Assembly (NCBI GenBank): GCA_037481835.1
Contig: JBBFKW010000002.1
Span: 128,001 to 192,000 of the forward strand
DNA from: Desulfosoma sp.
GTDB lineage: Bacteria; Desulfobacterota; Syntrophobacteria; Syntrophobacterales; DSM-9756
Direction of reading: 5' to 3'
Length of the DNA: 64,000 bases
How positions within the stretch are numbered: position 1 is the first letter of the stretch; every line of letters starts with the position of its first letter. The translations under genes were made by a program, and so were the position numbers. The notes under the pieces were generated by a model. It ran no database searches. It saw nothing but the letters and a program-made list of their open reading frames with translations, and was not told the origin of the DNA. Positions 16,343 through 57,446 of this stretch are shown here, piece by piece.

Positions 16343-16420
16343 TGGTCGGGACGGGCGGATTTGAACCGCCGACCCCCTGCTCCCAAGGCAGGTGCGCTGA
16401 CCAGTCTGCGCTACGCCCCG
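16343..16420 (-). tRNA. tRNA-Pro(TGG)
   Basis: CGGGGCG acceptor, anticodon arm CCTGC-CT-TGG-GA-GCAGG, GTTCAAATC, encoded CCA. Confidence 0.96.
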
Positions 16421-19406: not shown

Positions 19407-21476
19407 CTAAACCGGGACGATGCGGCACGGGATGGCCCGAACCTGCGGTGTCGCCATCACGGGGTCCGTTCGGTCCACCGCCGTAAGCATGTTGAGGTTG
19501 GCCGTCTCCCAACCCCGCAAAGGATCGTGGGTCCTTTCCGGGAACCACCAGCCGTAGTCGGCCGACACCACGGGGTGTTTCAGCGCGTCCGTGAGATGAG
19601 CCCGTTGCTGGATCCGACCGTAGGCCGTCTCGATGGCCACGTGCTGTCCTTCGTCGATGCCCAGCCGAGCTGCCGTATCCCTTGGAATCCACACGACGGG
19701 TTCCGGGTGTTTCTTGCGCAGGCTCTCCAGGTGCCTGTAGGCCGAGTGGAAAAAGTCCTTGGGCTTTCGGCTGGTGAGCAGCAGGGGGAAATCGTCCGGC
19801 AGGGGCCCGGGGTCCTCGGCTGCCGGAAGCGCCTCAAATCCCCACTTTTCCAGGAGGCTTGATCGCAGTTCCACCTTGCCGGACGGGGTCTTGAATCCTT
19901 TGTCCCGGTACGTTCGAAAGCGCTTGGGTCCGAACAGCACTCCTTTTTGGCAAAACTCGGCGTAAGAGATCCCGGATGGAGCCAGGATGGCTTCCAGGAT
20001 GGCCTCGGGACCGTCCCAAAACCGATGGGCCAGTCCCAGGCGTTTTCCCCATTCGTTCAGGATCCACAAGTCCGAACGGCACCCTTCGGGAGGATCCACC
20101 ACCTTGGGGCGTGCCGTGACGAACCCGTGGGGCAGGCCGTAGTGGCCCATATCGTCGTATTCCATGGGCAGGGCAATGGGGAGCACCACGTCCGCCAGCG
20201 CGGCCGTGGGCGTCATGACCTGGTCGGCCACAGCCAGAAAATCCAAGGACTCCAGAGCCCTCTTGACGCTCGGGGCCTCGGAGTAACTGAGCATGGGGTT
20301 GGTGCCTTGCACGTACAGGCAGCGGATGGGGTAGGGGGCCTGCTTGAGAATGGATTGCACCACCATCCAGCTGGGCACGGAAATGAGGCGCGGCAGGATG
20401 CCGTGGTGGTGGTTGAGGAGCTTCCTGGGACGATCGGGAAAATCATCCAGAGCGATCATGTCCTTGAGGGGCAAGAGGCGCGGCATTTCAGTGCGCACAT
20501 TGCCCCCGGGTTCTTCCAAATTGCCCGTGACGGCCATGAGATGCACCAGGGCGCGACACGTGTGGGCGCTGTTGGGGGTGTGTTCCACGGCGTTACCCCA
20601 CTGGAGGCACGCCGGGCGGGATCGGGCGTAAAGCCGTGCCGCCGAGACGATCTTTTCCCTGTCCACCCAGCAGCCGGCGGCGACCCGATCGGGCGTATAG
20701 GATTGCACGGCCCGGCGCAGATCGTCGAAGCCCACCGTCCACTGATCCACGAACTCCCGATCGTACAGTCCCTCTTCCAAGATCACATGGAGGAAGCCCA
20801 TGGCGAGCAGGTCGTCCGTGCCGGGGCGGATCTGGAGCCACAGGTCGGCTTTTTCGGCCGCACCCGTCCGCATGGGGTCCACGACCACAAGACGCGCACC
20901 TTGCTTGAGGCACGCATGGAGATGGCCTCCCAGAACCCCTTCCTCGTTGGTGGCCGAAGGGTTACTCCCCCACAAGAGCACGCACCGAGACGGGCCGTGC
21001 AAATCGGCTACGGGAAAGAATCCGCAGGTGACGAGAGCCATCTGTTCCCGAGGCATGTGACACACGTGCTGGCTTCCGGCCACGTTGGGGCAGCGGAGCA
21101 GGTTCGCCAGGCGAAGGAGCAGGAAAAATTCCGGGCCCTTGGGCGCCCCCTGGGCGAAAGCGAGGCTTTCCGGTCCCGTGGCCTGCAGCGCCTTGGAAAA
21201 GGCCTGGGTCAGTTGGCCCAGAGCCTCATCCCAGGAAATGGGTTTCCACAGGCCGGAGCCTCGAGGCCCGTTTCGCTGAAGGGGCTGAGTGAGCCTCAAG
21301 GGATGTTCCAAGCGCTCTTTCGCGGAAAGGCCTTTGCGGCAATGCCAGCCACGGCTGAAAGGATCGTCGGGGTCCGGCGCCACCGTGTCGATACGGCCGT
21401 CCTCGACGGCCACCTTCAAGCCGCAGCCGCCATGATCAAAGCGGGCACAATGGGTCCGAAACCATTCCTGCGCCAT
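19407..21476 (-). CDS. Molybdo/tungsto-bis-PGD oxidoreductase (DMSO reductase family, acetylene-hydratase-like)
   Basis: N-terminal Fe-S region HCARFDHGGC...CRKG, WGSNP, VVDP, IRPGTD, TPSGKVE, FFHS; no signal peptide seen. Confidence 0.88.
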   Translation of the reverse strand: MAQEWFRTHCARFDHGGCGLKVAVEDGRIDTVAPDPDDPFSRGWHCRKGLSAKERLEHPLRLTQPLQRNGPRGSGLWKPISWDEALGQLTQAFSKALQATGPESLAFAQGAPKGPEFFLLLRLANLLRCPNVAGSQHVCHMPREQMALVTCGFFPVADLHGPSRCVLLWGSNPSATNEEGVLGGHLHACLKQGARLVVVDPMRTGAAEKADLWLQIRPGTDDLLAMGFLHVILEEGLYDREFVDQWTVGFDDLRRAVQSYTPDRVAAGCWVDREKIVSAARLYARSRPACLQWGNAVEHTPNSAHTCRALVHLMAVTGNLEEPGGNVRTEMPRLLPLKDMIALDDFPDRPRKLLNHHHGILPRLISVPSWMVVQSILKQAPYPIRCLYVQGTNPMLSYSEAPSVKRALESLDFLAVADQVMTPTAALADVVLPIALPMEYDDMGHYGLPHGFVTARPKVVDPPEGCRSDLWILNEWGKRLGLAHRFWDGPEAILEAILAPSGISYAEFCQKGVLFGPKRFRTYRDKGFKTPSGKVELRSSLLEKWGFEALPAAEDPGPLPDDFPLLLTSRKPKDFFHSAYRHLESLRKKHPEPVVWIPRDTAARLGIDEGQHVAIETAYGRIQQRAHLTDALKHPVVSADYGWWFPERTHDPLRGWETANLNMLTAVDRTDPVMATPQVRAIPCRIVPV

Positions 21477-23149: not shown

Positions 23150-23352
23150 CGTTCGGTTTGCCACTCCCTCGTTTCCGCTCACGAGGCTTTCTTTGCGCCT
23201 TTGCGCAAGACCTTTTTACCTCGCGCCAGGCCCCAAGGCGCTGTTTTGTTTGACATGAGCCTCCACGTCTCCACCCTGGGGGATCTCATGAAAAATTTCC
23301 CTTGACACGACCGGGCGGGGCTTGTTACCCGTAGAGCACAATTTTTCATGAG

Positions 23353-23514
23353 CGGTCAGGTGCTCGGCGCTTAAAAGGGAATCCCGTGAGAGTCGGGAGC
23401 GGTCCCGCCGCTGTGAACGGGGACGGCGCCTGCAGGAATGCCACTGGCGACGAAAAATCGCCGGGAAGGTGCAGGCGTTCGGATGATCCGTGAGCCAGAA
23501 GACCTGCCTGATCG
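23353..23514 (+). ncRNA. Cobalamin (B12) riboswitch
   Basis: AAAAGGGAATCCCGTGAGAGTCGGGAGCGGTCCCGCCGCTGT, GCCACTG...GGGAAGG, B12 box GAGCCAGAAGACCTGCC; P1 CGGTCAGG/CCTGATCG; upstream of cbiK. Confidence 0.95.
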
Positions 23515-23580
23515 CCGGGAAACACGGCACGGGTGCATGCCGTCACGTTTCCGCCGCAAGGACCAAGCGAAACTGGGTGC

Positions 23581-23732: not shown

Positions 23733-23978
23733 ATGAAAAGAGGACTCATCGTTTATGTGACGGGCGGTGGAGAACTTCACGAAGAAAGCTGGGGTTCCTA
23801 CGCGTGCATGGACCGCTTCGGGGCCGACGCGGTGGGGGTCGCCCGCAGCGAATTCGACATCGCCGAAAACTGGTGGCGCATGATCACTCGAGGCATGCAG
23901 GAAATCCTCTGCGTGCGGGCTCAGGTAAGTGACGACGGCATGAGCATCATCGGGGCTCCTTTGAGGATTTGCGGCTGA
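23733..23978 (+). CDS. Small hypothetical protein (81 aa), B12-regulated
   Basis: GGAGG RBS; MKRGLIVYV...WWRMITRGMQEI...PLRICG; first gene after the riboswitch. Confidence 0.75.
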   Translation: MKRGLIVYVTGGGELHEESWGSYACMDRFGADAVGVARSEFDIAENWWRMITRGMQEILCVRAQVSDDGMSIIGAPLRICG

Positions 23979-29087: not shown

Positions 29088-29164
29088 TGGAGCGGGAGAC
29101 GGGCTTCGAACCCGCGACCCTCAGCTTGGAAGGCTGATGCTCTAGCCAGCTGAGCTACTCCCGC
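29088..29164 (-). tRNA. tRNA-Gly(TCC)
   Basis: GCGGGAG acceptor, TCAGC-CT-TCC-AA-GCTGA anticodon arm, GTTCGAA, CCA. Confidence 0.96.
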
Positions 29165-29331: not shown

Positions 29332-30333
29332 ATGGAGAAACACTATCGAGATGTGATCGAACAGGTGAACATGTTGGAAGTGTTCAAGGCCCGTCGCATC
29401 GTGCAGCGGGTGCTGCCCAGGACCCCTTTGGCCCGGTACGAAAGATTGTGCGGAGAGTTGGGGGCGGATGTCTACATCAAGCATGAAAACCATCTGCCCA
29501 CCAATTCCTTCAAAGTCCGCGGCGCCGCGAATTTCATGGCCAATGTGACGCCGGAAATCGAGCGCACGGGGATCGTGGTGGCGACCCGAGGCAACCACGG
29601 CATGGCGGTGGCATGGGCGGCTCGGGAAAAAGGGATCTTTTGCAACGTGGTGGTCCCGGAAAGCAACGACCCGGAAATGAATGCGGCAATTGTCTCCTAC
29701 GGGGCCCAGCTCATCGTCAAGGGCGCGGACTTTTACGAAGCGCAGGACTACTGTGAAGAATTGGCGGAGAGCGCCGGCTATTATTATCTACGCCAAGGCA
29801 ACGAGCCCCATCTCATTACGGGCATTGCCGTGATGGGCGTGGAAATCTTCGAGGAACTCCCCGAAGTGGACGTCATCCTCATGCCCATCGGCGGGGGGAC
29901 GGGCTGCGCCGCCTTGGCTGCGGTCATCCAAGGAATCAACCCCAAGGTGGAACTCATCGGCGTCCAGGCGCACAACATCCCCTCCTTTTACGAATCGTGG
30001 AAGCAGAAGAAAAAGGTGACCGTCCCCCTGGCGGAAACCGTGGCTGATGGATTGGCGGCCCGGTCGGTTTTCGAGGTCCCGTTCCTCCTTTTGAAGGACG
30101 TGGTGAGCGATGTTGTCTTGCTGAGCGAGGATGAGCTGGTAGACGGGGTGCGGCTGGCGCTGCGCTATACCCACAATCTGGCGGAGGTGGCCGGGGCGGC
30201 GGCCCTGGCGGCGGCCTTCAAGATCCGGGAGCGTTTGGCCGGAAAGAAGGTGGTCGCGGTCATGACGGGCGGGAACATGACCTACGGGAAACTGGCCAGA
30301 ATCTTTGCCGAAGCGCCGGCTGCAGGCTGTTAG
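29332..30333 (+). CDS. PLP-dependent threonine/serine dehydratase family protein (no ACT domain)
   Basis: KHEN..TNSFKVRGA, TRGNHG, PIGGG, TVADGLA, TGGN; RBS GAGGAGG. Confidence 0.88.
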   Translation: MEKHYRDVIEQVNMLEVFKARRIVQRVLPRTPLARYERLCGELGADVYIKHENHLPTNSFKVRGAANFMANVTPEIERTGIVVATRGNHGMAVAWAAREKGIFCNVVVPESNDPEMNAAIVSYGAQLIVKGADFYEAQDYCEELAESAGYYYLRQGNEPHLITGIAVMGVEIFEELPEVDVILMPIGGGTGCAALAAVIQGINPKVELIGVQAHNIPSFYESWKQKKKVTVPLAETVADGLAARSVFEVPFLLLKDVVSDVVLLSEDELVDGVRLALRYTHNLAEVAGAAALAAAFKIRERLAGKKVVAVMTGGNMTYGKLARIFAEAPAAGC

Positions 30334-30466: not shown

Positions 30467-31021
30467 TCACGCCGCCGAGCGGCATTCCAGGACGACCTTG
30501 TCGGCGCCGTCTTTTTCTTCCAGGTACACGTTAACCTGCTCTTCGGGGCGTGTCTTCAGTTCCAACCCCACGAAATGGGCGCAGATGGGCAGTTCTCGAT
30601 GCCCGCGATCGACCAGGGCGGCGACGCGCACCCTGCGCGGCCGGCCGTAATCCATCAGGGCGTCCAGGGCGGCGCGGATGGTACGCCCGGTAAAGAGCAC
30701 ATCATCCACGAGGACGATGTCCTTATCGTCCACGGCGAAAGGAAGCACGGTGGCACGCACCTTGGGCTGGATGTGGAGACGCGACCAATCGTCGCGATAG
30801 AGGTTGATATCCAGGGTGCCGATGGGCACGTGAAGCCCGTAATCCTTTTCGAGGATCCGGCCGAGGCGCCGGGCCAGGAAAACCCCGCCCGTGTGGATCC
30901 CCACCAGAGCCAGCGCGGAGGGGTCGTCGGCTTCATGGACGATTTCCCGGGCGATGCGCTCCAGAGCCCGTCCCATGGCATCGCTTTCCATGACCACGTG
31001 ATCGAGTGCTTTTGCATCCAT
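30467..31021 (-). CDS. pyrR: Pyrimidine regulatory protein / uracil phosphoribosyltransferase PyrR
   Basis: RIAREI, LDINLYRDD, LVDDVLFTGRTIRAA, DRGHRELPI. Confidence 0.95.
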   Translation of the reverse strand: MDAKALDHVVMESDAMGRALERIAREIVHEADDPSALALVGIHTGGVFLARRLGRILEKDYGLHVPIGTLDINLYRDDWSRLHIQPKVRATVLPFAVDDKDIVLVDDVLFTGRTIRAALDALMDYGRPRRVRVAALVDRGHRELPICAHFVGLELKTRPEEQVNVYLEEKDGADKVVLECRSAA

Positions 31022-31949: not shown

Positions 31950-32132
31950 AAACGCTTTCATCCTCGCAGGGCTGCGGCGCAAACCGGTATTTCGGGGGCG
32001 CATCCCATGCCGTTCGCGAAGCATCGCGGCTTTTGGCTTGACAGGGATCGTGGCCTTGGGTAAGGAACCGTTCTGAACACAGGATACGGCCACGATCCGG
32101 GAATTGGAGCTCACTCAAAAAGCGGCGCGGCG

Positions 32133-32219
32133 ATGATGACGCGGTTCTTTCGTTTCTACTTTATCGGCGAAAAGGGGGGCTTCTTTTTTAGGAAGTCTAC
32201 CCATGGCCGAGCGGGGTAG
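32133..32219 (+). CDS. Putative Phe-rich leader peptide (MMTRFFRFYFIGEKGGFFFRKSTHGRAG)
   Basis: 7 Phe + 1 Tyr in 28 codons, downstream of TTGACA-N17-TAAGGA (32038-32066) and overlapping alternative hairpins; RBS is weak. Confidence 0.7.
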   Translation: MMTRFFRFYFIGEKGGFFFRKSTHGRAG

Positions 32220-32346
32220 GCGAAAGGAGCCGGTCGCACAGCCCCGCTCAAGCGGGATAACCAGCCATGGGTAGACGAGATCGGAACCCATGGCTTTTCG
32301 TTTTTAGAGGCCGTGGGTTCGTGGAACCGACGGCCTTTGCGTTTTT
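32195..32346 (+). promoter_or_regulatory. Transcription attenuator (alternative hairpins plus terminator) upstream of paaK
   Basis: Segments 32195-32207, 32263-32276, 32284-32295, 32308-32320 and 32324-32336 pair alternately; last hairpin is followed by TTGCGTTTTT. Confidence 0.7.
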
Positions 32347-32400
32347 GGCGGACACACTCCCCCAAACTACGGCTCCCTCACACAAAGGAGGAACGATGCG

Positions 32401-33702
32401 ATGATCTACGACATGGAATATGAAACCCTACCCCGCGAGGCCCTGGAGGCCATTCAACTCAGAAGACTCCAGAACACGCTCCAACGCGTCTATGCCACGG
32501 TTCCCTTTTACAGGAAACGGTTCGACGAAGTGGGGTTCAAACCCTCGGAACTGAAATCCCTTGACGATTTGCGGCGCGTGCCGTTCACCACCAAGCAGGA
32601 TCTTCGGGACAACTACCCTTTCGGGCTTTTTGCCGTGCCCATGGAAAACGTGGTCCGCATTCACGCCTCGTCGGGTACCACCGGTAAACCCACGGTGGTT
32701 GGCTACACGGCCCGGGACATCGAGACCTGGGCGACTCTCATGGCCCGGTCCCTTTCCGCCGCCGGAGCCACTCGAGGCGACATCATCCATAACGCCTACG
32801 GGTACGGTTTGTTCACGGGGGGGTTGGGCGTCCACTACGGTGCGGAAAAGCTGGGCGCCTCGGTCATTCCCATCTCCGGGGGAAACACCAAGCGGCAGAT
32901 CATGATCATGAAGGATTTCGGCGCCACGATCCTCACCTGCACACCGTCCTACGCCCTGCACTTGGCGGAAGTTGCCCAGGAGATGGGGGTGGAGTTCAAG
33001 GACCTGAAATTTAAGGCGGGTCTTTTTGGAGCCGAGCCTTGGTCCGAGAGGATGCGGGAGGAGATCGAAAGGAAGCTTCATTTGGACGCCGTGGACATTT
33101 ACGGGCTGAGTGAAGTCATCGGGCCCGGCGTTGCGGTGGAGTGCCTGGAAGCCAAAGCGGGACTCCATATCTTCGAAGATCATTTCATTGCCGAAATCAT
33201 CGATCCGGCAACGGGAGAAGTTTTGCCTCCGGGATCCGTGGGCGAACTCGTCTTCACCTCCATCACCAAGGAAGCCTTTCCCGTCATCCGTTACCGCACG
33301 CGGGACATCACGAGCCTGAACCCCGAACCGTGCGTGTGCGGCCGGACCTTCGTGCGCATGAACCGCGTGAGCGGCCGAAGCGACGACATGCTCATCATCC
33401 GGGGCGTCAACGTGTTCCCGTCCCAGATCGAAAGCGTTCTCATGGAGATTCAAGGGGTCGAGCCCCACTACCAGCTCATCGTGGACCGGGAAGGGAACCT
33501 GGATATGCTCACGGTCCTTGTGGAAGTCGGGGAATCGGCCTTTTCCGACAAGGTGAAGACCCTCCAAGACCTTGAAAAGGTGATCACCAAGAACATCAAG
33601 GAATACCTTGGAATTTCGGCCAAGGTGAAACTGGTGGAACCCAAGACGATCGCCCGCAGCGAAGGCAAAGCGGTTCGGGTGATCGATAACAGAAAACTTT
33701 AA
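32401..33702 (+). CDS. paaK: Phenylacetate-CoA ligase
   Basis: [56 protein letters not shown]. Confidence 0.93.
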
Positions 33703-33733: not shown

Positions 33734-34165
33734 ATGCGCGTGGAACAGATTTCGGTCTTTTTGGAAAACAAGGCGGGACGTCTCGCCGAAGTGACCCGGG
33801 TCTTGTCGGAAGCGGGGGTGAACATCCGAGCCTTGTCCCTTGCCGACACGTCGGATTTCGGGATTCTACGCCTCATCGTCAACGATAACGAAAAGGCCAA
33901 GGAGGCCCTCAAGGCCAACGGCTTTACAGTCGGAAAGACCGACGTCGTGGCGGTGGAAGTGGAAGACCGCCCCGGGGGGCTCCACAAGATTCTGGACATC
34001 CTCCGAAAGGCCGGCATCAACGTGGAGTACATGTACGCCTTCGTGCAGCAGAGCGGGAACAACGCCGTGATCATCTTCCGATTCGACAACTTGGACGAGG
34101 CGGTCCGCGTTCTTACGGAAAACGGCGTGACGGTCATCAACGGAAGCCGGGTTTACAGCATGTAG
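33734..34165 (+). CDS. Tandem ACT-domain protein
   Basis: [41 protein letters not shown]. Confidence 0.9.
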
Positions 34166-34257: not shown

Positions 34258-35418
34258 ATGGAAAGAAGGGCAAGACCGTGGATCTTCTGGATGGCGGCCG
34301 TGGCGGCGGTTCTGGGACTTGTGGTCGGGCCGAAGGCGGCTTTCAGCGCCGAGCCTTACAAGATCGGAGGCGTTTTTTCCATCACCGGCTCTTCCTCTTT
34401 TCTCGGGGATCCCGAGAAGAAAAGCCTGGAGATGGCCGTCGATGAGATCAACGCCCAGGGGGGGATCGACGGCCGGCCGTTGGAGGCCGTCGTCTACGAC
34501 ACGGAAGGGGATCCCACGAAAGCCGTGCTGGCGGTCAACAAGCTGATCAGCAAGGATAACGTCGTGGCCATTATCGGGCCCAGCCTGACCCCCACGACCT
34601 TGGCGGTCATGCCCATTGTGGAGCGGGTCCAGATGCCGCTCATCAGCTGTGCGGCCGGGATCCAAATCGTGGAACCCGTCAAGCCCTACGTTTTCAAGAC
34701 GGCCCAGAGCGACGTCCTGGCTGTGGCCGCCATCTACAAGCACATGCAGAAGCACGGCATCAAGAAAATCGGGATTCTCACGGTGACCAACGCCTTCGGG
34801 GTGAGCGGTCGGGATCAGCTGGTCAAGCAGGCCCCGGATTACGGCATTCAGATCGTCAAGGAAGAGGCCTACGGGGCCGGCGACACGGACATGACGGCGC
34901 AATTGACGAAGATCAAAGGGGAAAATCCCGATGCCGTCGTGTGCTGGGGGACCAATCCGGGGCCGGCCGTGGTGGCCAAGAACATGCGCCAGTTGGGCTT
35001 TAACGCACCCCTGTACCAAAGCCACGGGGTCGCCTCGCCCAAGTTCATCGAACTGGCGGGGGAAGCGGCTGAAGGCATTCGGCTTCCCACGGGAAAGATT
35101 CTCGTGGCGGACCTTTTGCCCGACATGGACCCCCAGAAGGCCGTCCTGAAAAAATACATTGTCGACTTTAACCAGCGCTACGGCGGCGGGGTTTCGGGCT
35201 TCGGCGGTTACGCCTACGACGCCATGCACATCCTTGCCAAGGCGCTCAAGGGAACCGGCGGCGATAAGGCCAAGATTCGGGACAACCTGGAAAAGATCGC
35301 CAACCATGTGGGTATCAGCGGAATTTTCACCATGACGGCCAAGGACCACAACGGTTTGGGGCCCGAGGCTTTCGTCATGGTGGAAATCCGAAACGGCACG
35401 TGGAAACTGCTGGACTAG
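34258..35418 (+). CDS. Liv-type ABC transporter substrate-binding protein
   Basis: Signal peptide; YKIGGVFSITG, INAQGGIDG, IIGP. Confidence 0.9.
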   Translation: MERRARPWIFWMAAVAAVLGLVVGPKAAFSAEPYKIGGVFSITGSSSFLGDPEKKSLEMAVDEINAQGGIDGRPLEAVVYDTEGDPTKAVLAVNKLISKDNVVAIIGPSLTPTTLAVMPIVERVQMPLISCAAGIQIVEPVKPYVFKTAQSDVLAVAAIYKHMQKHGIKKIGILTVTNAFGVSGRDQLVKQAPDYGIQIVKEEAYGAGDTDMTAQLTKIKGENPDAVVCWGTNPGPAVVAKNMRQLGFNAPLYQSHGVASPKFIELAGEAAEGIRLPTGKILVADLLPDMDPQKAVLKKYIVDFNQRYGGGVSGFGGYAYDAMHILAKALKGTGGDKAKIRDNLEKIANHVGISGIFTMTAKDHNGLGPEAFVMVEIRNGTWKLLD

Positions 35419-35436: not shown

Positions 35437-36315
35437 ATGAGCGAATTCCTGCAGTTTCTCCTCACGGGGATCACCACCGGGGCGATCTACGGCCTGATCG
35501 CCCTGGGGTTCAACGTGCTCTACAACGCCACGGATTTGATCAACTTCGCCCAGGGCGAATTCGTCATGCTGGGCGGCCTGTGCTTCTATTCGCTGGGGTC
35601 GGCTCTTGGATGGCCTGCGGCCGCGGCTTTCGCCGCCGCCGTCTGCATCGTCTCCCTGTTGGGGCTGCTGCTGGAAAGGGTGGCGCTGCGCCCGGTCAAG
35701 AAACCGGAACCTCTCACCCTCATCATCATCACCGTGGGAGCGAGCATTTTCCTTCGGGGTGTGGCCATGCGGCTGTGGGGCAAGGACCCGTACAGCGTCC
35801 CGGGGCTCACGGCGTCCGTGGAGCCCGTTCGGATCTGGGGCGCGGCGCTCATGCCCCAGAGCTTGTGGATCGTGGGCATCGTTGTCGCTTTCATGACGGG
35901 TTTGCACCTTTTCGGCAAACGCACCTTGACCGGCAAGGCCATGGAGGCCTGTGCCATTCACCGCAACGCCGCCTGGATCCTGGGCATTCCCAGCGATCGC
36001 ATGGTGCTTTTGGCCTTCGCCTTGAGCGCCGGGCTGGGGGCTGTGGGGGGGGTGATCATCGCCCCCATTACCATGTGCAGCTACGATATGGGCACCATGC
36101 TGGGCCTGAAGGGCTTTTGCGCGGCCATGTTGGGAGGCTTGGGCAGCCACTGGGGGGCGGCGCTGGGCGGCGTGCTCCTCGGTGTGCTGGAATCCCTCGG
36201 GGTGGGCTATTTTTCCTCCGGCATCAAGGACGCCGTCGCCTTTCTCGTGCTCCTGGTGATCCTCATCGTGCGACCCGCCGGCCTTCTCGGGGCCTCTGCG
36301 GTGAAGCGTTTTTAG
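35437..36315 (+). CDS. Liv-type ABC transporter permease (LivH-like)
   Basis: GAIYGLIALG, INFAQGEF, LGGLGS, RPAGLLG. Confidence 0.92.
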   Translation: MSEFLQFLLTGITTGAIYGLIALGFNVLYNATDLINFAQGEFVMLGGLCFYSLGSALGWPAAAAFAAAVCIVSLLGLLLERVALRPVKKPEPLTLIIITVGASIFLRGVAMRLWGKDPYSVPGLTASVEPVRIWGAALMPQSLWIVGIVVAFMTGLHLFGKRTLTGKAMEACAIHRNAAWILGIPSDRMVLLAFALSAGLGAVGGVIIAPITMCSYDMGTMLGLKGFCAAMLGGLGSHWGAALGGVLLGVLESLGVGYFSSGIKDAVAFLVLLVILIVRPAGLLGASAVKRF

Positions 36316-36334
36316 GCGGGGGAAAGGAGGGGCG

Positions 36335-37291
36335 GTGGGTTCTCGACAGAGGCTGTACGGGACTGCGATTTTTTCCCTGGGAATGGCGGCGCTCGGCGTG
36401 GCGGTGTCCAACCCCTATGAACAGCAGTTGCTGACCATTATCGGCATCCACACCCTGTTGGCTCTGGGCCTGAACATGCTCATGGGCTATGCGGGCCAGA
36501 TTTCCCTGGGCCATGCCGCCTTTTTCGGCCTGGGCGCCTACGGCACGGGCATTCTCACCACCCACTTTCAATGGTCCCCGTGGGCGTCTTTGCCCGCCGT
36601 GCTCGTATTCGCCGCCCTCTCGGGCTACCTCATCGGCCGTCCCATCCTTCGCCTTTCGGGGTATTACCTGGCCATGGGGACCCTCGGCCTGGGCATCATC
36701 GTCCATGTCCTCTTTCGAGAATGGGACACGTTCACCGGCGGGGCTTCGGGCCTGGTGGGCATTCCTCCCCTGAGCGTGGGGCGACTGATCGTGGGGCTCG
36801 GGCGAAGCGGCTTCTTCGCGGTGTGGGCGACCGTGGTCCTGTTTTTCGTCCTCTGCGGCCGAGTGGTGGATTCGCGCATCGGCCGCGCCCTGCGCGCCTT
36901 GGGGGACAGCCAGGGCGCTGCGGCCGCTTCCGGCATCCATACCGCCCATCTCAAGGCGGCCATTTTTTCCTTCAGCGCCGTCATGGCGGCACTGGCCGGG
37001 TACCTCTACGCCCATCTTCTGGGATTTATCAGCCCCAGTTCTTTCGATTTTCTCATGTCCATCCGCATGGTCACCATGGTGGTCATCGGCGGTATGGCCA
37101 GCATTTGGGGTTCCCTTCTCGGCGCCTCGGTCATCACTCTCCTCCCCGAATGGCTCCACGTATTTTCCGATTACGAAATGATGGTCTACGGATTGATCCT
37201 CATGGGAGTCATGATTTTTCTGCCCCAGGGGCTCACGCGAGGGGTCCTGGATGCCCTCCAGCGCGCCCGGGCGCGAACGGCTTCTTCGTAG
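36335..37291 (+). CDS. Liv-type ABC transporter permease (LivM-like)
   Basis: GYAGQISLGHAAF, RLSGYYLA, TGGASG, FLPQGL. Confidence 0.92.
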   Translation: MGSRQRLYGTAIFSLGMAALGVAVSNPYEQQLLTIIGIHTLLALGLNMLMGYAGQISLGHAAFFGLGAYGTGILTTHFQWSPWASLPAVLVFAALSGYLIGRPILRLSGYYLAMGTLGLGIIVHVLFREWDTFTGGASGLVGIPPLSVGRLIVGLGRSGFFAVWATVVLFFVLCGRVVDSRIGRALRALGDSQGAAAASGIHTAHLKAAIFSFSAVMAALAGYLYAHLLGFISPSSFDFLMSIRMVTMVVIGGMASIWGSLLGASVITLLPEWLHVFSDYEMMVYGLILMGVMIFLPQGLTRGVLDALQRARARTASS

Positions 37292-37318
37292 AAGCGAAGG
37301 GGGAAGGAGACAAGGTTT

Positions 37319-38092
37319 TTGAGCGGCCTCAACCCATTTCTGACCATCGACGGCGTCTCCAAGGCCTTCGGGGGCATCCAAGCCCTCTATCAGGTCTCCT
37401 TCGCAGTGCAGGCGCGGCACATCCATGCCCTGATCGGCCCCAACGGGGCGGGAAAGACGACTCTTTTCAACGTGATCTCAGGGGCCTTCGCGCCCGATGA
37501 GGGTTCCATCCGGCTGGACGGCAAAGACATTCAGGGGCGTCCCATGCATGAGCTCGTGCGGCGAGGCATCGCGCGCACCTTCCAGAACGTGGAGCTTTTC
37601 GGGAGCATGAGCGTTTTGGAAAACGTTCTTGTGGGATGCCACACTCGCACACGTTGTGGGCTCATCGGGGCCATGGTGCGATGGCCGTGGGTTTCCCGCG
37701 AGGAACGCTGGGCTCGAGAACGCGCCATGGAACTCCTAAACATGGTGGGCCTTGCAGACTCGGCCATGAAAAGAGCCGTGGACCTTCCCTTCGGGTGGCA
37801 GCGCCTTGTGGAAATCGCCCGGGCCTTGGCCGGCGATCCCAAGCTCTTGCTTCTGGACGAGCCCGCTGCGGGACTCAATGCCGTGGAAACCGAAAGGCTG
37901 TCCCGGCTCATTCAAGAGATTCAAGCCCTTGGCGTTACGGTCCTCCTGGTCGAACACGACATGAACCTCACCATGGACATTTCCGACCGCATCGTGGTCC
38001 TGGACCGCGGCCGAAAGCTTGCGGAAGGAACGCCTCGGGAAATCCAATCCAGCGACGCGGTCATGGAAGCCTACTTGGGAAAGAAACACTGA
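37319..38092 (+). CDS. Liv-type ABC transporter ATPase (LivG-like)
   Basis: GPNGAGKT, RTFQN, LLLDEPAAG, VEHDM. Confidence 0.92.
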   Translation: MSGLNPFLTIDGVSKAFGGIQALYQVSFAVQARHIHALIGPNGAGKTTLFNVISGAFAPDEGSIRLDGKDIQGRPMHELVRRGIARTFQNVELFGSMSVLENVLVGCHTRTRCGLIGAMVRWPWVSREERWARERAMELLNMVGLADSAMKRAVDLPFGWQRLVEIARALAGDPKLLLLDEPAAGLNAVETERLSRLIQEIQALGVTVLLVEHDMNLTMDISDRIVVLDRGRKLAEGTPREIQSSDAVMEAYLGKKH

Positions 38093-38114
38093 GAGGGGAG
38101 GGGTCCGCCGACCC

Positions 38115-38861
38115 ATGCTGATCGTTCGCAATCTTCGGGCTGGCTACGGCCGCATCGAGGCGCTCCACGGGGTGAGTCTTTCCGTGAGGCACGGGGAAAT
38201 CGTGGCCATCGTGGGGGCCAACGGGGCGGGAAAGAGCACCCTGTTGCGGGCCGTTGCGGGGTTGATCGTGCCGTGGCAGGGAGAGGTTCTCTTTGAGGAG
38301 CGGTCCCTTGCGGGGACGAAACCGCCGGCGATCGTCGCCGCGGGAATCGGCTTGGTCCCGGAAGGGCGCTGGTTGTTCCCCCCCATGAGCGTCCTGGACA
38401 ATCTCCGCCTGGGGGCTTACTTGAGGCTGCGCCGCGGCGAAAAAGAGGCCGTGCGGGAGGACTTGGAGCGCGTCTTTGAGCTCTTTCCCATTCTCGCCGA
38501 ACGCCGAAAACAGCCGGCGGGGTCCCTTTCCGGCGGCGAGCAGCAGATGCTGGCCATTGCCCGAGCCCTTATGAGCCGCCCCAAGATGCTTCTGCTCGAC
38601 GAACCGTCCACGGGCCTAGCCCCGCTCCTCGTGGAAAAGATCTTTGAAACCATCGTCCAGCTCAACGGGGAAGGGATCACCTTCCTCCTCGTAGAACAGA
38701 ACGCCCGGGCGGCTTTGGCCGTGGCGAGCCGCGGTTACGTCCTGGAAACCGGCCGGATGGTCCTCCAGGGAAAGGCGGGGGACCTCCTCGAGGATCAAGA
38801 AGTGAAGCGAGCCTACCTGGGTAAGGACTATCGTGAGTTTGCGGAAGGGAGGGCCCGATGA
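38115..38861 (+). CDS. Liv-type ABC transporter ATPase (LivF-like)
   Basis: GANGAGKS, VPEGR, LSGGEQQM, LDEPS. Confidence 0.92.
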   Translation: MLIVRNLRAGYGRIEALHGVSLSVRHGEIVAIVGANGAGKSTLLRAVAGLIVPWQGEVLFEERSLAGTKPPAIVAAGIGLVPEGRWLFPPMSVLDNLRLGAYLRLRRGEKEAVREDLERVFELFPILAERRKQPAGSLSGGEQQMLAIARALMSRPKMLLLDEPSTGLAPLLVEKIFETIVQLNGEGITFLLVEQNARAALAVASRGYVLETGRMVLQGKAGDLLEDQEVKRAYLGKDYREFAEGRAR

Positions 38862-40132
38862 GCGATGCAGGAAACGGCAACGGGGAATGGCTGCCGCCGG
38901 CGGAACGGCGCCAGCAACAGCTGGAGCGGCTCCAGATTGTGTGCAATCGCGCGTACAAGAACGTGCCGTTTTACCGGAATCGGTTTCAGGCGGCGGCCCT
39001 TTCCCCTCAGGACATCGGCAGCCTGGAAGACGTTCGGCGCCTGCCTTTTACGGAACGCCGCCACTTCGGCGAACATTACCCCTACGGGCTTTTTGCCGTG
39101 CCGTTACGGGACATCGTGCGCATCCACACGGCGCCGGGCATCGGCGGCAGTCTGGCGGTGAGCGGCTACACGGCCCGGGACCTGAAGATGTGGAAGGAGA
39201 TGGTTGCTCGAGCCCTGAGGGCGGCCGGGGTCTCAGTGGACGATATCCTCCAAATCGTCCTCCATCCCGGGTTGGCCAACTGGGGCCGGGATTACAAGGA
39301 CGGCGCCGAGGCGCTTCAGGCGGGCGTCATCCCCCTGAATGCCCTGCACCTGAGCAAACAGATCATGGTTCTGCGGGACTACAAGACCTCCGTGCTCATC
39401 ACCACGCCGACTTCGGCCGTCCAAATCCAGGAACTCTTGTTTTCCTCGGACATCAATCCCAACGAACTTTCTCTGAAGACCCTGATTCTCGTCGGGGAGC
39501 CGGCGTCACAGGAGCTGCGCCGCAGGATCGAGGAGCAGCTGCACGTGCGCACATGGCAGCATTACGGGTTGAGCGAGGTGCCCGGGCCGGCGGTGGCCTA
39601 TGAGTGCGAAGGGCACGATGGGCTTCATGTGTCCGAAGACCATTTCCTCGTGGAGGTGCTGGATCCGATAACCCTTGAGCCCGTACCCGAGGGAGAAAGC
39701 GGCGAATTGGTCCTCACGAGTCTCACCATCCAGGCATTCCCTCTCATTCGGTTCCGCACCGGAGACCGGGTGAGGGTCCTTGCCGAGGGCTGCCCGTGCG
39801 GGAGGACCCTGAGGCGGCTGGAGTGGCTTCCCGACCGGGTGGACGACCTCCTTGTCATTCAGGGGGTGAAGATTGACAAGGACCAGGTTGCCGTTCGAGT
39901 GGCCCAGACGCTCGGGTTTGCTCCCCGGAAGCTCTCGGTGCACCTTGTCCGGCAAGGCGGCTACAAGGCTCTGGAAGTGCAGTTGGGCATGGAAGAAAAC
40001 CTCTTCAGCGACGAGATCAAGGAATTGGAGCGGCTCGTTCGAAAGACGGCCTTCGAGCTCCGGCAGGAATTCGGCGTTCCGGTGGAAGTGCGCCTCCTGG
40101 AGGGCCCCAGCGTGGAGGCGGCTTTCCCATGA
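38858..40132 (+). CDS. Phenylacetate-CoA ligase paralogue with degenerate catalytic motifs
   Basis: Colinear with paaK (YPYGLFAVP, YGLSE, RFRTGD, FSDEIK), but the P-loop reads TAPGIGGS and the C-terminal GKAxR is missing. Confidence 0.85.
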   Translation: MSDAGNGNGEWLPPAERRQQQLERLQIVCNRAYKNVPFYRNRFQAAALSPQDIGSLEDVRRLPFTERRHFGEHYPYGLFAVPLRDIVRIHTAPGIGGSLAVSGYTARDLKMWKEMVARALRAAGVSVDDILQIVLHPGLANWGRDYKDGAEALQAGVIPLNALHLSKQIMVLRDYKTSVLITTPTSAVQIQELLFSSDINPNELSLKTLILVGEPASQELRRRIEEQLHVRTWQHYGLSEVPGPAVAYECEGHDGLHVSEDHFLVEVLDPITLEPVPEGESGELVLTSLTIQAFPLIRFRTGDRVRVLAEGCPCGRTLRRLEWLPDRVDDLLVIQGVKIDKDQVAVRVAQTLGFAPRKLSVHLVRQGGYKALEVQLGMEENLFSDEIKELERLVRKTAFELRQEFGVPVEVRLLEGPSVEAAFP

Positions 40133-41297: not shown

Positions 41298-41396
41298 TGG
41301 CGGAAGTGCATGGGAATCGAACCCACCTGGGACGCCCCTCAGCGCCCCACACCGGATTTGAAGTCCGGGAGCCCCACCAGTGAGCTTGGCACTTCC
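41298..41396 (-). tRNA. selC: tRNA-Sec(TCA)
   Basis: 8-bp acceptor GGAAGTGC/GCACTTCC, anticodon arm CCGGA-CT-TCA-AA-TCCGG, long variable arm, GTTCGATTC, GCCA end. Confidence 0.96.
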
Positions 41397-57368: not shown

Positions 57369-57446
57369 CGGGGCGTAGCGCAGTCTGGTAAGCGCACTAG
57401 CATGGGGAGCTAGGGGTCGGCGGTTCAAATCCGCCCGTCCCGACCA
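57369..57446 (+). tRNA. tRNA-Pro(GGG)
   Basis: CGGGGCG acceptor, CTAGC-AT-GGG-GA-GCTAG anticodon arm, GTTCAAATC, CCA; TTGACA upstream at 57326. Confidence 0.96.

Follow-up and report, generated by a model that had tools for sequence, protein, structure and literature searches.

A probable phenylalanine-sensing leader-peptide attenuator ahead of a paaK-livKHMGF operon in Desulfosoma, with sister Tyr and Trp leaders at iorAB operons

In the lettering used for the his attenuator, the helices A:B, C:D and E:F stand against B:C and D:E. For the his leader it has been proposed, in the part of the paper by Elf and Ehrenberg available to us (PMC1183508), that an extra hairpin between the pause hairpin and the terminator lowers basal read-through. 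The pheL-pheA leader, as described in the accessible text of PMC3082878, has 1:2 as pause hairpin, 2:3 as antiterminator and 3:4 as terminator, and the same source, the Gurvich 2011 survey, which covered regions upstream of pheA only, names Desulfobacterium autotrophicum and Bacteroides as bacteria beyond the gamma group that might use it. According to the accessible portion of Sun 2013 (PMC3766115), amino-acid attenuators are mainly gammaproteobacterial and have biosynthetic targets. As for metabolism, the excerpts available describe the making of aromatic amino acids from aryl acids via Ior in Methanococcus maripaludis (PMC3462420) and of Phe from phenylacetate in rumen anaerobes (PMC7356843, citing Allison 1965).

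Here we analysed a stretch of 64,000 nucleotides of Desulfosoma DNA (hereafter the window), in which a short Phe-rich ORF precedes an operon of the order paaK-ACT-livKHMGF-paaK2 that contains no ior genes. An earlier note on this DNA had proposed a Phe-sensing attenuator in which 1:2 and 3:4 allow read-through and 2:3 and 4:5 stop transcription, and both conservation and covariation among relatives speak for it. Judging from these sequence data, we consider it very probable that the leader is a Phe-sensing leader-peptide attenuator; that a six-segment attenuator responding to charged tRNA-Phe and controlling the whole paaK-ACT-livKHMGF-paaK2 operon would be the full explanation is, in our opinion, likely. 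A full-text literature search, with supplements and subscription papers outside its scope, returned no description of a Phe leader at paaK, and the accessible parts of PMC8632094, PMC2965389, PMC3766115, PMC4833913, PMC11887813, PMC11304471 and PMC3896937 make no mention of such a leader.

The promoter, the leader ORF with its Phe and Tyr codons and segments 1 to 5 lie exactly where the earlier note had placed them (Table 1), and the pairings that it had listed were recovered as well: 1:2 is a perfect helix of 13 bp, 2:3 a perfect helix of 10 bp, 3:4 has 12 bp including G-U pairs, and the terminator-like 4:5 hairpin forms 12 of 13 pairs at -21.1 kcal/mol. A sigma-70 consensus scanner called no promoter at 32038..32066, because the -10 box is without the final T; of the 63 homologues with sufficient upstream DNA, 62 have TTGAC at most 160 nt 5' of the start of the leader, and in most of these TA stands at an equal distance from it. 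The Phe codons of the leader ORF form two clusters, at codons 5-10 and 17-19. At least seven Phe are found in only 12 of the 26,298 short ATG ORFs of the genome, and with the filter applied in our genome scan the window leader was the sole Phe-rich short ORF with a terminator-like hairpin behind it. Of 300 dinucleotide shuffles, 1 produced a perfect 13-bp inverted repeat, and the folding z-score of the leader region is -6.07. The tail 3' of 4:5 is interrupted (TTTGCGTTTTT), and a simple terminator scanner left this hairpin uncalled. The leader region had no match in Rfam, including Phe_leader (whose accession we take to be RF01859), either at the gathering score or at E up to 10. A search of the genome for a second DNA copy of the leader gave nothing significant beyond one short match (E 0.004), and the plasmid collection contained no match to it.

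Table 1. Features of the leader and its operon (window coordinates) and of related loci elsewhere in the genome (G000, given with contig).
Feature	Location	Strand	Remarks
Promoter TTGACA-N17-TAAGGA	32038..32066	+	from sequence; TTGACA 32038-32043, TAAGGA 32061-32066, 17 nt spacing
Leader peptide ORF	32133..32219	+	28 codons, 7 Phe and 1 Tyr
Segment A (Phe codons of the first cluster)	32141..32159	+	MFE; pairs with C over the stop codon
Hairpin 0:1	32174..32202	+	segment 0 (32174-32185) pairs with 32190-32202; -14.0 kcal/mol
Segment 1	32195..32207	+	pairs with 0 or with 2
Segment C (spans stop codon)	32214..32233	+	MFE; partner of A
Segment 2	32263..32276	+	pairs with 1 (read-through) or 3 (stop)
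Segment 3	32284..32295	+	joins 2 in hairpin T1 or 4 in the antiterminator
U-tract 1	32295..32305	+	after hairpin 2:3
Predicted terminator T2	32308..32346	+	segment 4 32308-32320, segment 5 32324-32336, U-tract 2 32336-32346
PaaK-type aryl-acetate CoA ligase	32401..33702	+	TIGR02155, 637.1 bits vs cut-off 646.3, full model
ACT-domain-pair protein	33734..34165	+	PF19571; PDB 2f06, E 1.3e-33
LivK-type binding protein	34258..35418	+	solved relatives include aryl-acid binders
livH, livM, livG, livF-type ABC importer genes	35437..38861	+	NCBIfam best matches, all below cut-off
Second, divergent PaaK-like ligase	38858..40132	+	39% identical to the first
Tyr-rich leader	G000:C21:20584-20658	+	before livKHMGF-paaK-iorAB; livK at 20788; two hairpins with U-tracts
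Trp leader	G000:C7:21322-21236	-	one terminator; before iorAB-livH-livMG-livF-paaK-paaK-livK
Tyr/Phe/Trp-rich leader	G000:C8:71852-71766	-	two terminators; 5' of a 719-aa ORF
Leu-rich leader	G000:C1:162541-162639	+	one terminator, in which the CCATGG core of segments 1-3 recurs
pheA (chorismate mutase, dehydratase, ACT)	G000:C3:93-2209	+	other contig, within a run of aro genes
Sixth PaaK paralogue	G000:C16:83246-84571	-	49% identical to window PaaK; no leader found

Homologous leaders were collected from loci around the best paaK of this genome and of 39 relatives (a fortieth relative offered only a 53% match), together with 80 named paaK loci and 21 phylum loci of 117 listed matches. After 7 duplicates had been dropped, 134 loci remained, of which 62 satisfied a strict criterion (a Phe-rich ORF plus the segment 2-3 motif); 12 variants were added by eye and L093, with no stop before segment 2, was dropped, which left 73 leaders, or 64 after dereplication at 90% identity. 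At 34 of the 40 loci of the order a Phe leader precedes the orthologous paaK, and such leaders occur in Desulfobacterales too; within the order, L033, L034 and L040 are without a leader, and L013, L014 and L016 keep one hairpin only. Across the 64 dereplicated leaders Phe makes up 28% of the residues, and in-frame Phe codons number 464, while the two remaining frames have 215 and 180, and frame 0 is the best in 61 leaders; conservation of the Phe codons in relatives had been suggested as a check of the attenuator, and it holds in frame. The phase counts of TTC are 141/45/7. In 200 shuffles the mean was 150 (sd 11). Partial leaders 5' of paaK were observed at L013, L014, L016, L069, L093, L097 and L127, and comprise a promoter with one hairpin, loss of the start codon, loss of the stop, deletion of segments 2-5, and loss of the leader ORF with segments 2-5 kept. 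In many Desulfobacterales loci (L078, L081, L086, L118, L124, L126, L128, L131, L133, L135, L136 and L137) a presumably crotonase-like gene lies directly 5' of paaK, and no Phe leader was observed there.

For covariation we aligned 55 of the 64 leaders (alignment A1), leaving out the short forms L010, L011 and L018 as well as L031, L071, L083, L107, L134 and L139, which have inserts or irregular ends. In the read-through fold (1:2 and 3:4) 90.6% of positions are paired and 12 of 25 pairs are compensated (7 of 13 in 1:2 and 5 of 12 in 3:4); one pair of 1:2 is UA in 31 leaders, CG in 24 and broken in none. The 2:3 and 4:5 helices are 94.7% paired, with 14 of 19 pairs compensated (6 of 10 and 8 of 9, respectively). 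None of 500 shuffles reached the paired fractions of either fold and slid registers gave 26-49%, in tests of a kind that kinship inflates. The compensations in 3:4, a helix rich in G-U pairs, may follow from those in the other helices; in 1:2, 2:3 and 4:5 the aligned leaders do carry the compensatory changes that the earlier note had advised looking for.

The leader has one more segment than was thought. Segment 0 carries the last Phe codons (the GGFFF codons), and its pairing in 0:1 locks the 5' half of segment 1, so that the stop fold consists of 0:1, 2:3 and 4:5 and the read-through fold of 1:2 and 3:4. Among 63 homologues, a set that excludes L071, hairpin 0:1 has a free energy of -4 kcal/mol or lower in 62 and beats shuffles at z < -2 in 52; its own halves pair better than swapped ones in 55. 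Its fixed-column covariation was not significant (44 of 500 shuffles were as high, and 1 of 7 pairs is compensated), because pairing registers differ among subgroups. We regard 0:1 as a probable pause hairpin, and a layout of six segments with 0:1 as protector seems likely to us. The claim that the leader follows a novel five-segment logic had to be abandoned: besides the sixth segment, an extra hairpin has its precedent in the described design of the his leader, and the attenuator logic is therefore not new. Another helix, A:C, forms a weaker outer arm of the untranslated fold; its cognate pairing beats the swapped one in 52 of 63 homologues (control, 31 of 63), which lends moderate support to this putative arm. 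As the main protector A:C was rejected in favour of 0:1, since it beats shuffles (z < -2) in only 22 of 63, and a local hairpin that would join segment 1 to the region around the stop codon was likewise rejected, having failed to form in any folding ensemble.

The last Phe codon stands exactly 5 nt upstream of segment 1 in 58 of 63 homologues, and the stop codon follows at 10 codons in 37, at 1 codon in 7 and at 2-15 codons in the rest. We modelled a ribosome footprint from A-15 to A+9 on transcripts ended after segment 2. In these models 1:2 forms in 57-59 of 63 homologues with the ribosome at codons -5 to -1 and in 49 at the last Phe codon, then in 15 at codon +1, in 1 of 56 at +2 and in 7 of 63 at the stop codon. 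What is informative in the model is that the last Phe codon is held at the masking boundary; the loss of 1:2 past this point follows from the masking itself. The earlier note had the ribosome mask segment 1 on reaching the stop codon; masking by the ribosome is retained, its restriction to the stop codon is not, as segment 1 would be masked once the last Phe codon has been passed. A footprint longer by 3 nt shifts the switching boundary one codon upstream, and with no ribosome the outcome is split, 1:2 forming in 34 of 63.

Foldings of longer transcripts were made for the window leader and for 55 homologues, 8 being left out for short or irregular ends. For the window leader ended at segment 4 (37 C, A+9), 3:4 amounts to 11.9 bp with the ribosome at codons 4-19 and to at most 0.5 bp at codons 20-29, where 2:3 holds. 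Among the homologues, foldings at equilibrium gave a contrast of 33-36 of 55 against 13-18 for the segment-4 end. At equilibrium the read-through fold lacks robustness: once segment 3 is included, ribosomes stalled at -8 to -1 leave 1:2 in place in no more than 18-24 of 55, and once segment 5 is included, 4:5 prevails in 48-51 of 55 despite a stalled ribosome. Since the full-length equilibrium favours termination, read-through must be kinetic, that is, depend on the order of folding.

We propose that the polymerase would pause at 0:1 until the ribosome melts this hairpin. With Phe plentiful, the ribosome would pass the last Phe codon, its leading edge would cover segment 1 and 2:3 would form; transcription would end at U-tract 1 or else at 4:5 with U-tract 2, and after ribosome release 0:1 would re-form and keep segment 1 locked. 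With Phe scarce, a ribosome stalled at or before the last Phe codon would cover segment 0, 1:2 would form before segment 3 emerges, 3 would pair with 4 before segment 5 emerges, and both terminators would be cancelled in relay.

The role of 2:3 in this scheme deserves separate consideration. Hairpin 4:5, with compensatory change in 8 of its 9 pairs, is followed by a U-tract in 55 of 59 homologues. U-tract 1 makes 2:3 a candidate first terminator: at least 5 T in 8 nt follow it in 49 of 63 homologues (two misses were mislocated by our script) and at least 6 T in 37 of 63, as compared with at least 5 T in 0 of 63 after segment 2. Taken together with the 74% identity between segment 3 plus tail and segment 5 plus tail (repeat D1) and with the loci L010, L011 and L018, which carry segments 0-3 only, this suggests that the 2:3/4:5 arrangement was produced by duplication of a terminator. 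That 2:3 is itself a working terminator, so that the leader has two, we hold to be evenly balanced. A little under an even chance goes to a reading with the same attenuator, in which 2:3 is a relay hairpin of the his type only, 4:5 is the single terminator, and the U residues that follow segment 3 lengthen 3:4 or bring about a pause. In the 3:4 fold the first of these residues do pair with the purines that precede segment 4, yet at least 6 T in 8 nt, as found in 37 of 63 homologues, is beyond what 3:4 needs. The U-tract is less constant after 2:3 than after 4:5 and is missing in some close relatives such as L003, and the 2:3 loop is long (13 nt in the window copy); against this, 2:3 is the sole candidate terminator of L010, L011 and L018, and the Tyr leaders described below possess two hairpins, both of them followed in most leaders by a T-rich tail. 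An extra hairpin that does not terminate is the design of the his leader in the accessible text of PMC1183508.

The attenuator, whether with one or two terminators, precedes genes for the predicted uptake and activation of aryl acids. The first paaK has a ribosome-binding site (AAGGAGGAA, at 32385-32393); the best solved relatives of its product are the phenylacetate-CoA ligases 2y27, 2y4o and 4r1l, and the closest named PaaK, 97% identical, is from an uncultured Desulfosoma genome. The gene of the ACT-pair protein, which may be a putative Phe feedback subunit, was also observed beside the Phe-type paaK at almost every locus for which downstream DNA exists. Among solved structures LivK matches 3sg0 (7e-47), 4dqd (1.6e-46), 3ukj/4eyo/4eyq (1.6e-42) and the LivK 3td9 (8.7e-33), and the entry titles of its relatives name 3-phenylpyruvic acid (4dqd), p-coumarate and caffeic acid; a single-sequence structure model of LivK was poor (pLDDT 43).

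Supporting a biosynthetic purpose is the observation that other operons of the genome carry leaders for the other aromatic amino acids. Our genome scan sought short ORFs followed by terminators, a procedure that also listed many chance Trp ORFs. The genome has two iorA genes, one behind a Tyr leader and the other behind a Trp leader, and the suggestion that iorAB might be found elsewhere with a similar leader was thereby borne out twice. In the first IorA clade livK is present in 11 of 20 fetched upstream loci of relatives; 8 of the 11 have leaders with at least three Tyr and two hairpins and 2 have leaders with two Tyr (by eye), and as the eleventh is without upstream DNA, the Tyr leader is present in 10 of 10 loci where such DNA exists. 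Most Tyr leaders have T-rich tails after both hairpins. At the second iorA copy a leader with at least two Trp and one terminator occurs in 9 of 32 relatives' loci; at one further locus the leader contains just one Trp, and at another there are three but no nearby stop. All loci with Trp leaders belong to two of three families, and terminator remnants without a leader are found at the second iorA in L196, L204, L210 and L218. IorA is encoded in 40 of 41 genomes, in 34 of them twice. Records from Nitrospirae and Thermodesulfovibrio are among the 7 loci at which iorAB immediately precedes the orthologous paaK; no leader was seen before iorAB-paaK in L087, L089 and L099.

Thus both the CoA ligase and IorAB are encoded in the genome, IorAB lying outside the window operon. 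Ring-degradation markers were not found: profile searches detected no paaA and no dch above cut-off, and oah, over the cut-off in 3 of 41 genomes, was not found in this one (99% complete). The two iorAB operons with Tyr or Trp leaders and the missing markers both favour the anabolic role that the earlier note had assigned to the operon, and we think that it probably serves anabolic salvage. The operon would import an aryl acid and activate phenylacetate to its CoA ester; IorAB encoded elsewhere would reductively carboxylate the ester to phenylpyruvate, from which transamination would give Phe. Against this reading count the lack of ior genes in the window operon and the position of both iorAB copies behind Tyr or Trp leaders; and since the genome also has pheA and aroC of the de novo route, salvage is not essential. 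The three leaders suggest that the Phe, Tyr and Trp operons all rebuild aromatic amino acids from scavenged acids. More tentatively, and with somewhat less than an even chance in our estimate, there could be in Syntrophobacteria a three-channel salvage regulon in which Phe, Tyr and Trp attenuators mark the substrates and the Phe and Tyr switches arose through terminator duplication and have two working terminators. If true, the channels would be phenylacetate, 4-hydroxyphenylacetate and indoleacetate, served by three importer/CoA-ligase sets and two Ior enzymes, and a one-terminator ancestor would have given rise to switches in which one stalled ribosome cancels both terminators in relay, with an off state tighter than in any single-terminator attenuator.

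An alternative with the same Phe switch is that the operon mainly imports phenylpyruvate or Phe, the ligase/Ior route being secondary. The second-best solved relative of LivK is by title a complex with 3-phenylpyruvic acid (4dqd), E. coli LIV-I carries Phe and the window operon has no ior, but we find this alternative unlikely: the first gene to follow the leader is paaK, the leader is kept where no liv homologue was detected downstream (L011, L018), amino-acid binders score below aryl-acid binders among the relatives of LivK, and the Tyr and Trp operons unite ligase, importer and Ior.

It may also be asked whether the window copy still functions. The earlier note had called the leader's ribosome-binding site weak, and indeed no clear Shine-Dalgarno sequence precedes its ATG (32113-32132 examined), as compared with a loose SD-like 4-mer in 47 of 64 homologues, a count made without a background control. 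Decayed leaders, moreover, are found in relatives (L013, L014, L016, L069, L097 and L127). The window leader might thus be untranslated and the operon low regardless of Phe; the window copy has nevertheless kept its reading frame and all of its 7 Phe codons, neither the 5-nt spacing nor any helix is disturbed in it, and we consider such decay quite improbable. Least credible of all is that the Phe codons are a by-product of U-rich RNA in a constitutive or protein-controlled terminator before a catabolic phenylacetate operon, for although the U runs belong to 0:1 and the A:C arm and PaaK is annotated as catabolic, the Phe frame bias and TTC phase, the fixed spacing of the last Phe codon, the change to Tyr or Trp codons in the paralogous operons and the missing ring-degradation markers all stand against it.

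The genome contains further leaders and related genes. Behind the Tyr/Phe/Trp-rich leader lie what we take to be an aroF-like gene and, in the 719-aa ORF, a TyrA-like start, and the gene behind the Leu-rich leader is presumably leuA-like, to judge by its N-terminal sequence. The genome scan found no leader before pheA; the ORF before pheA, we assume, resembles an archaeal-type dehydroquinate synthase. Elsewhere in the window we noted a cobalamin riboswitch at 23341-23525 (+; 117.5 bits) upstream of an ORF at 23969 (328 aa) that seems to resemble a cobalt chelatase, tRNA-Sec and three other tRNA genes (41302-41396 (-), 29091-29164 (-), 16346-16420 (-) and 57369-57443 (+)), a stand-alone pyrR above cut-off at 30467-31021 (-) and a threonine-dehydratase-like gene below cut-off at 29332-30333 (+).

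If our reading is correct, genes of sulfate reducers and syntrophs annotated as phenylacetate catabolism and branched-chain amino-acid transport would be switched on by amino-acid shortage, and would therefore be anabolic. The cognate leaders offer candidate genes for the long-known anaerobic synthesis of Phe from phenylacetate. They also add a conserved attenuator family outside Gammaproteobacteria with natural one- and two-terminator forms, and the natural shifts of the stop codon are a test of models of basal read-through.

Several known systems resemble parts of this picture. A second tandem terminator and a potential antiterminator, like those proposed here, are found in some rimP leaders of Gammaproteobacteria, whose target is unrelated and for which the accessible description includes no amino-acid leader peptide (PMC2965389). 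The proposed route from aryl acid to aromatic amino acid is shared with M. maripaludis, where it involves Ior, and with the rumen, where Phe is made from phenylacetate, as far as the available parts of those papers go; here, in contrast, there are three paralogous operons, each with a leader for one amino acid, and such leaders would assign substrates to ligases, importers and the two Ior enzymes. The pheL-pheA leader likewise has runs of Phe codons in a short ORF, but it has four segments where the window leader has six, and the latter precedes paaK and not pheA or pheST. The his attenuator of Salmonella and E. coli, in the accessible accounts, has the same succession of control-codon run, pause/protector hairpin, extra hairpin and terminator. 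The window leader differs from it in sensing, on our reading, Phe, in having no sequence match to it, in the U-tract that its extra hairpin owns, and in its target, which is an importer with a CoA ligase and not a de novo pathway. The attenuation mechanism is classical; what is new is the leader family, its target, the probable second terminator and the sister Tyr and Trp leaders.
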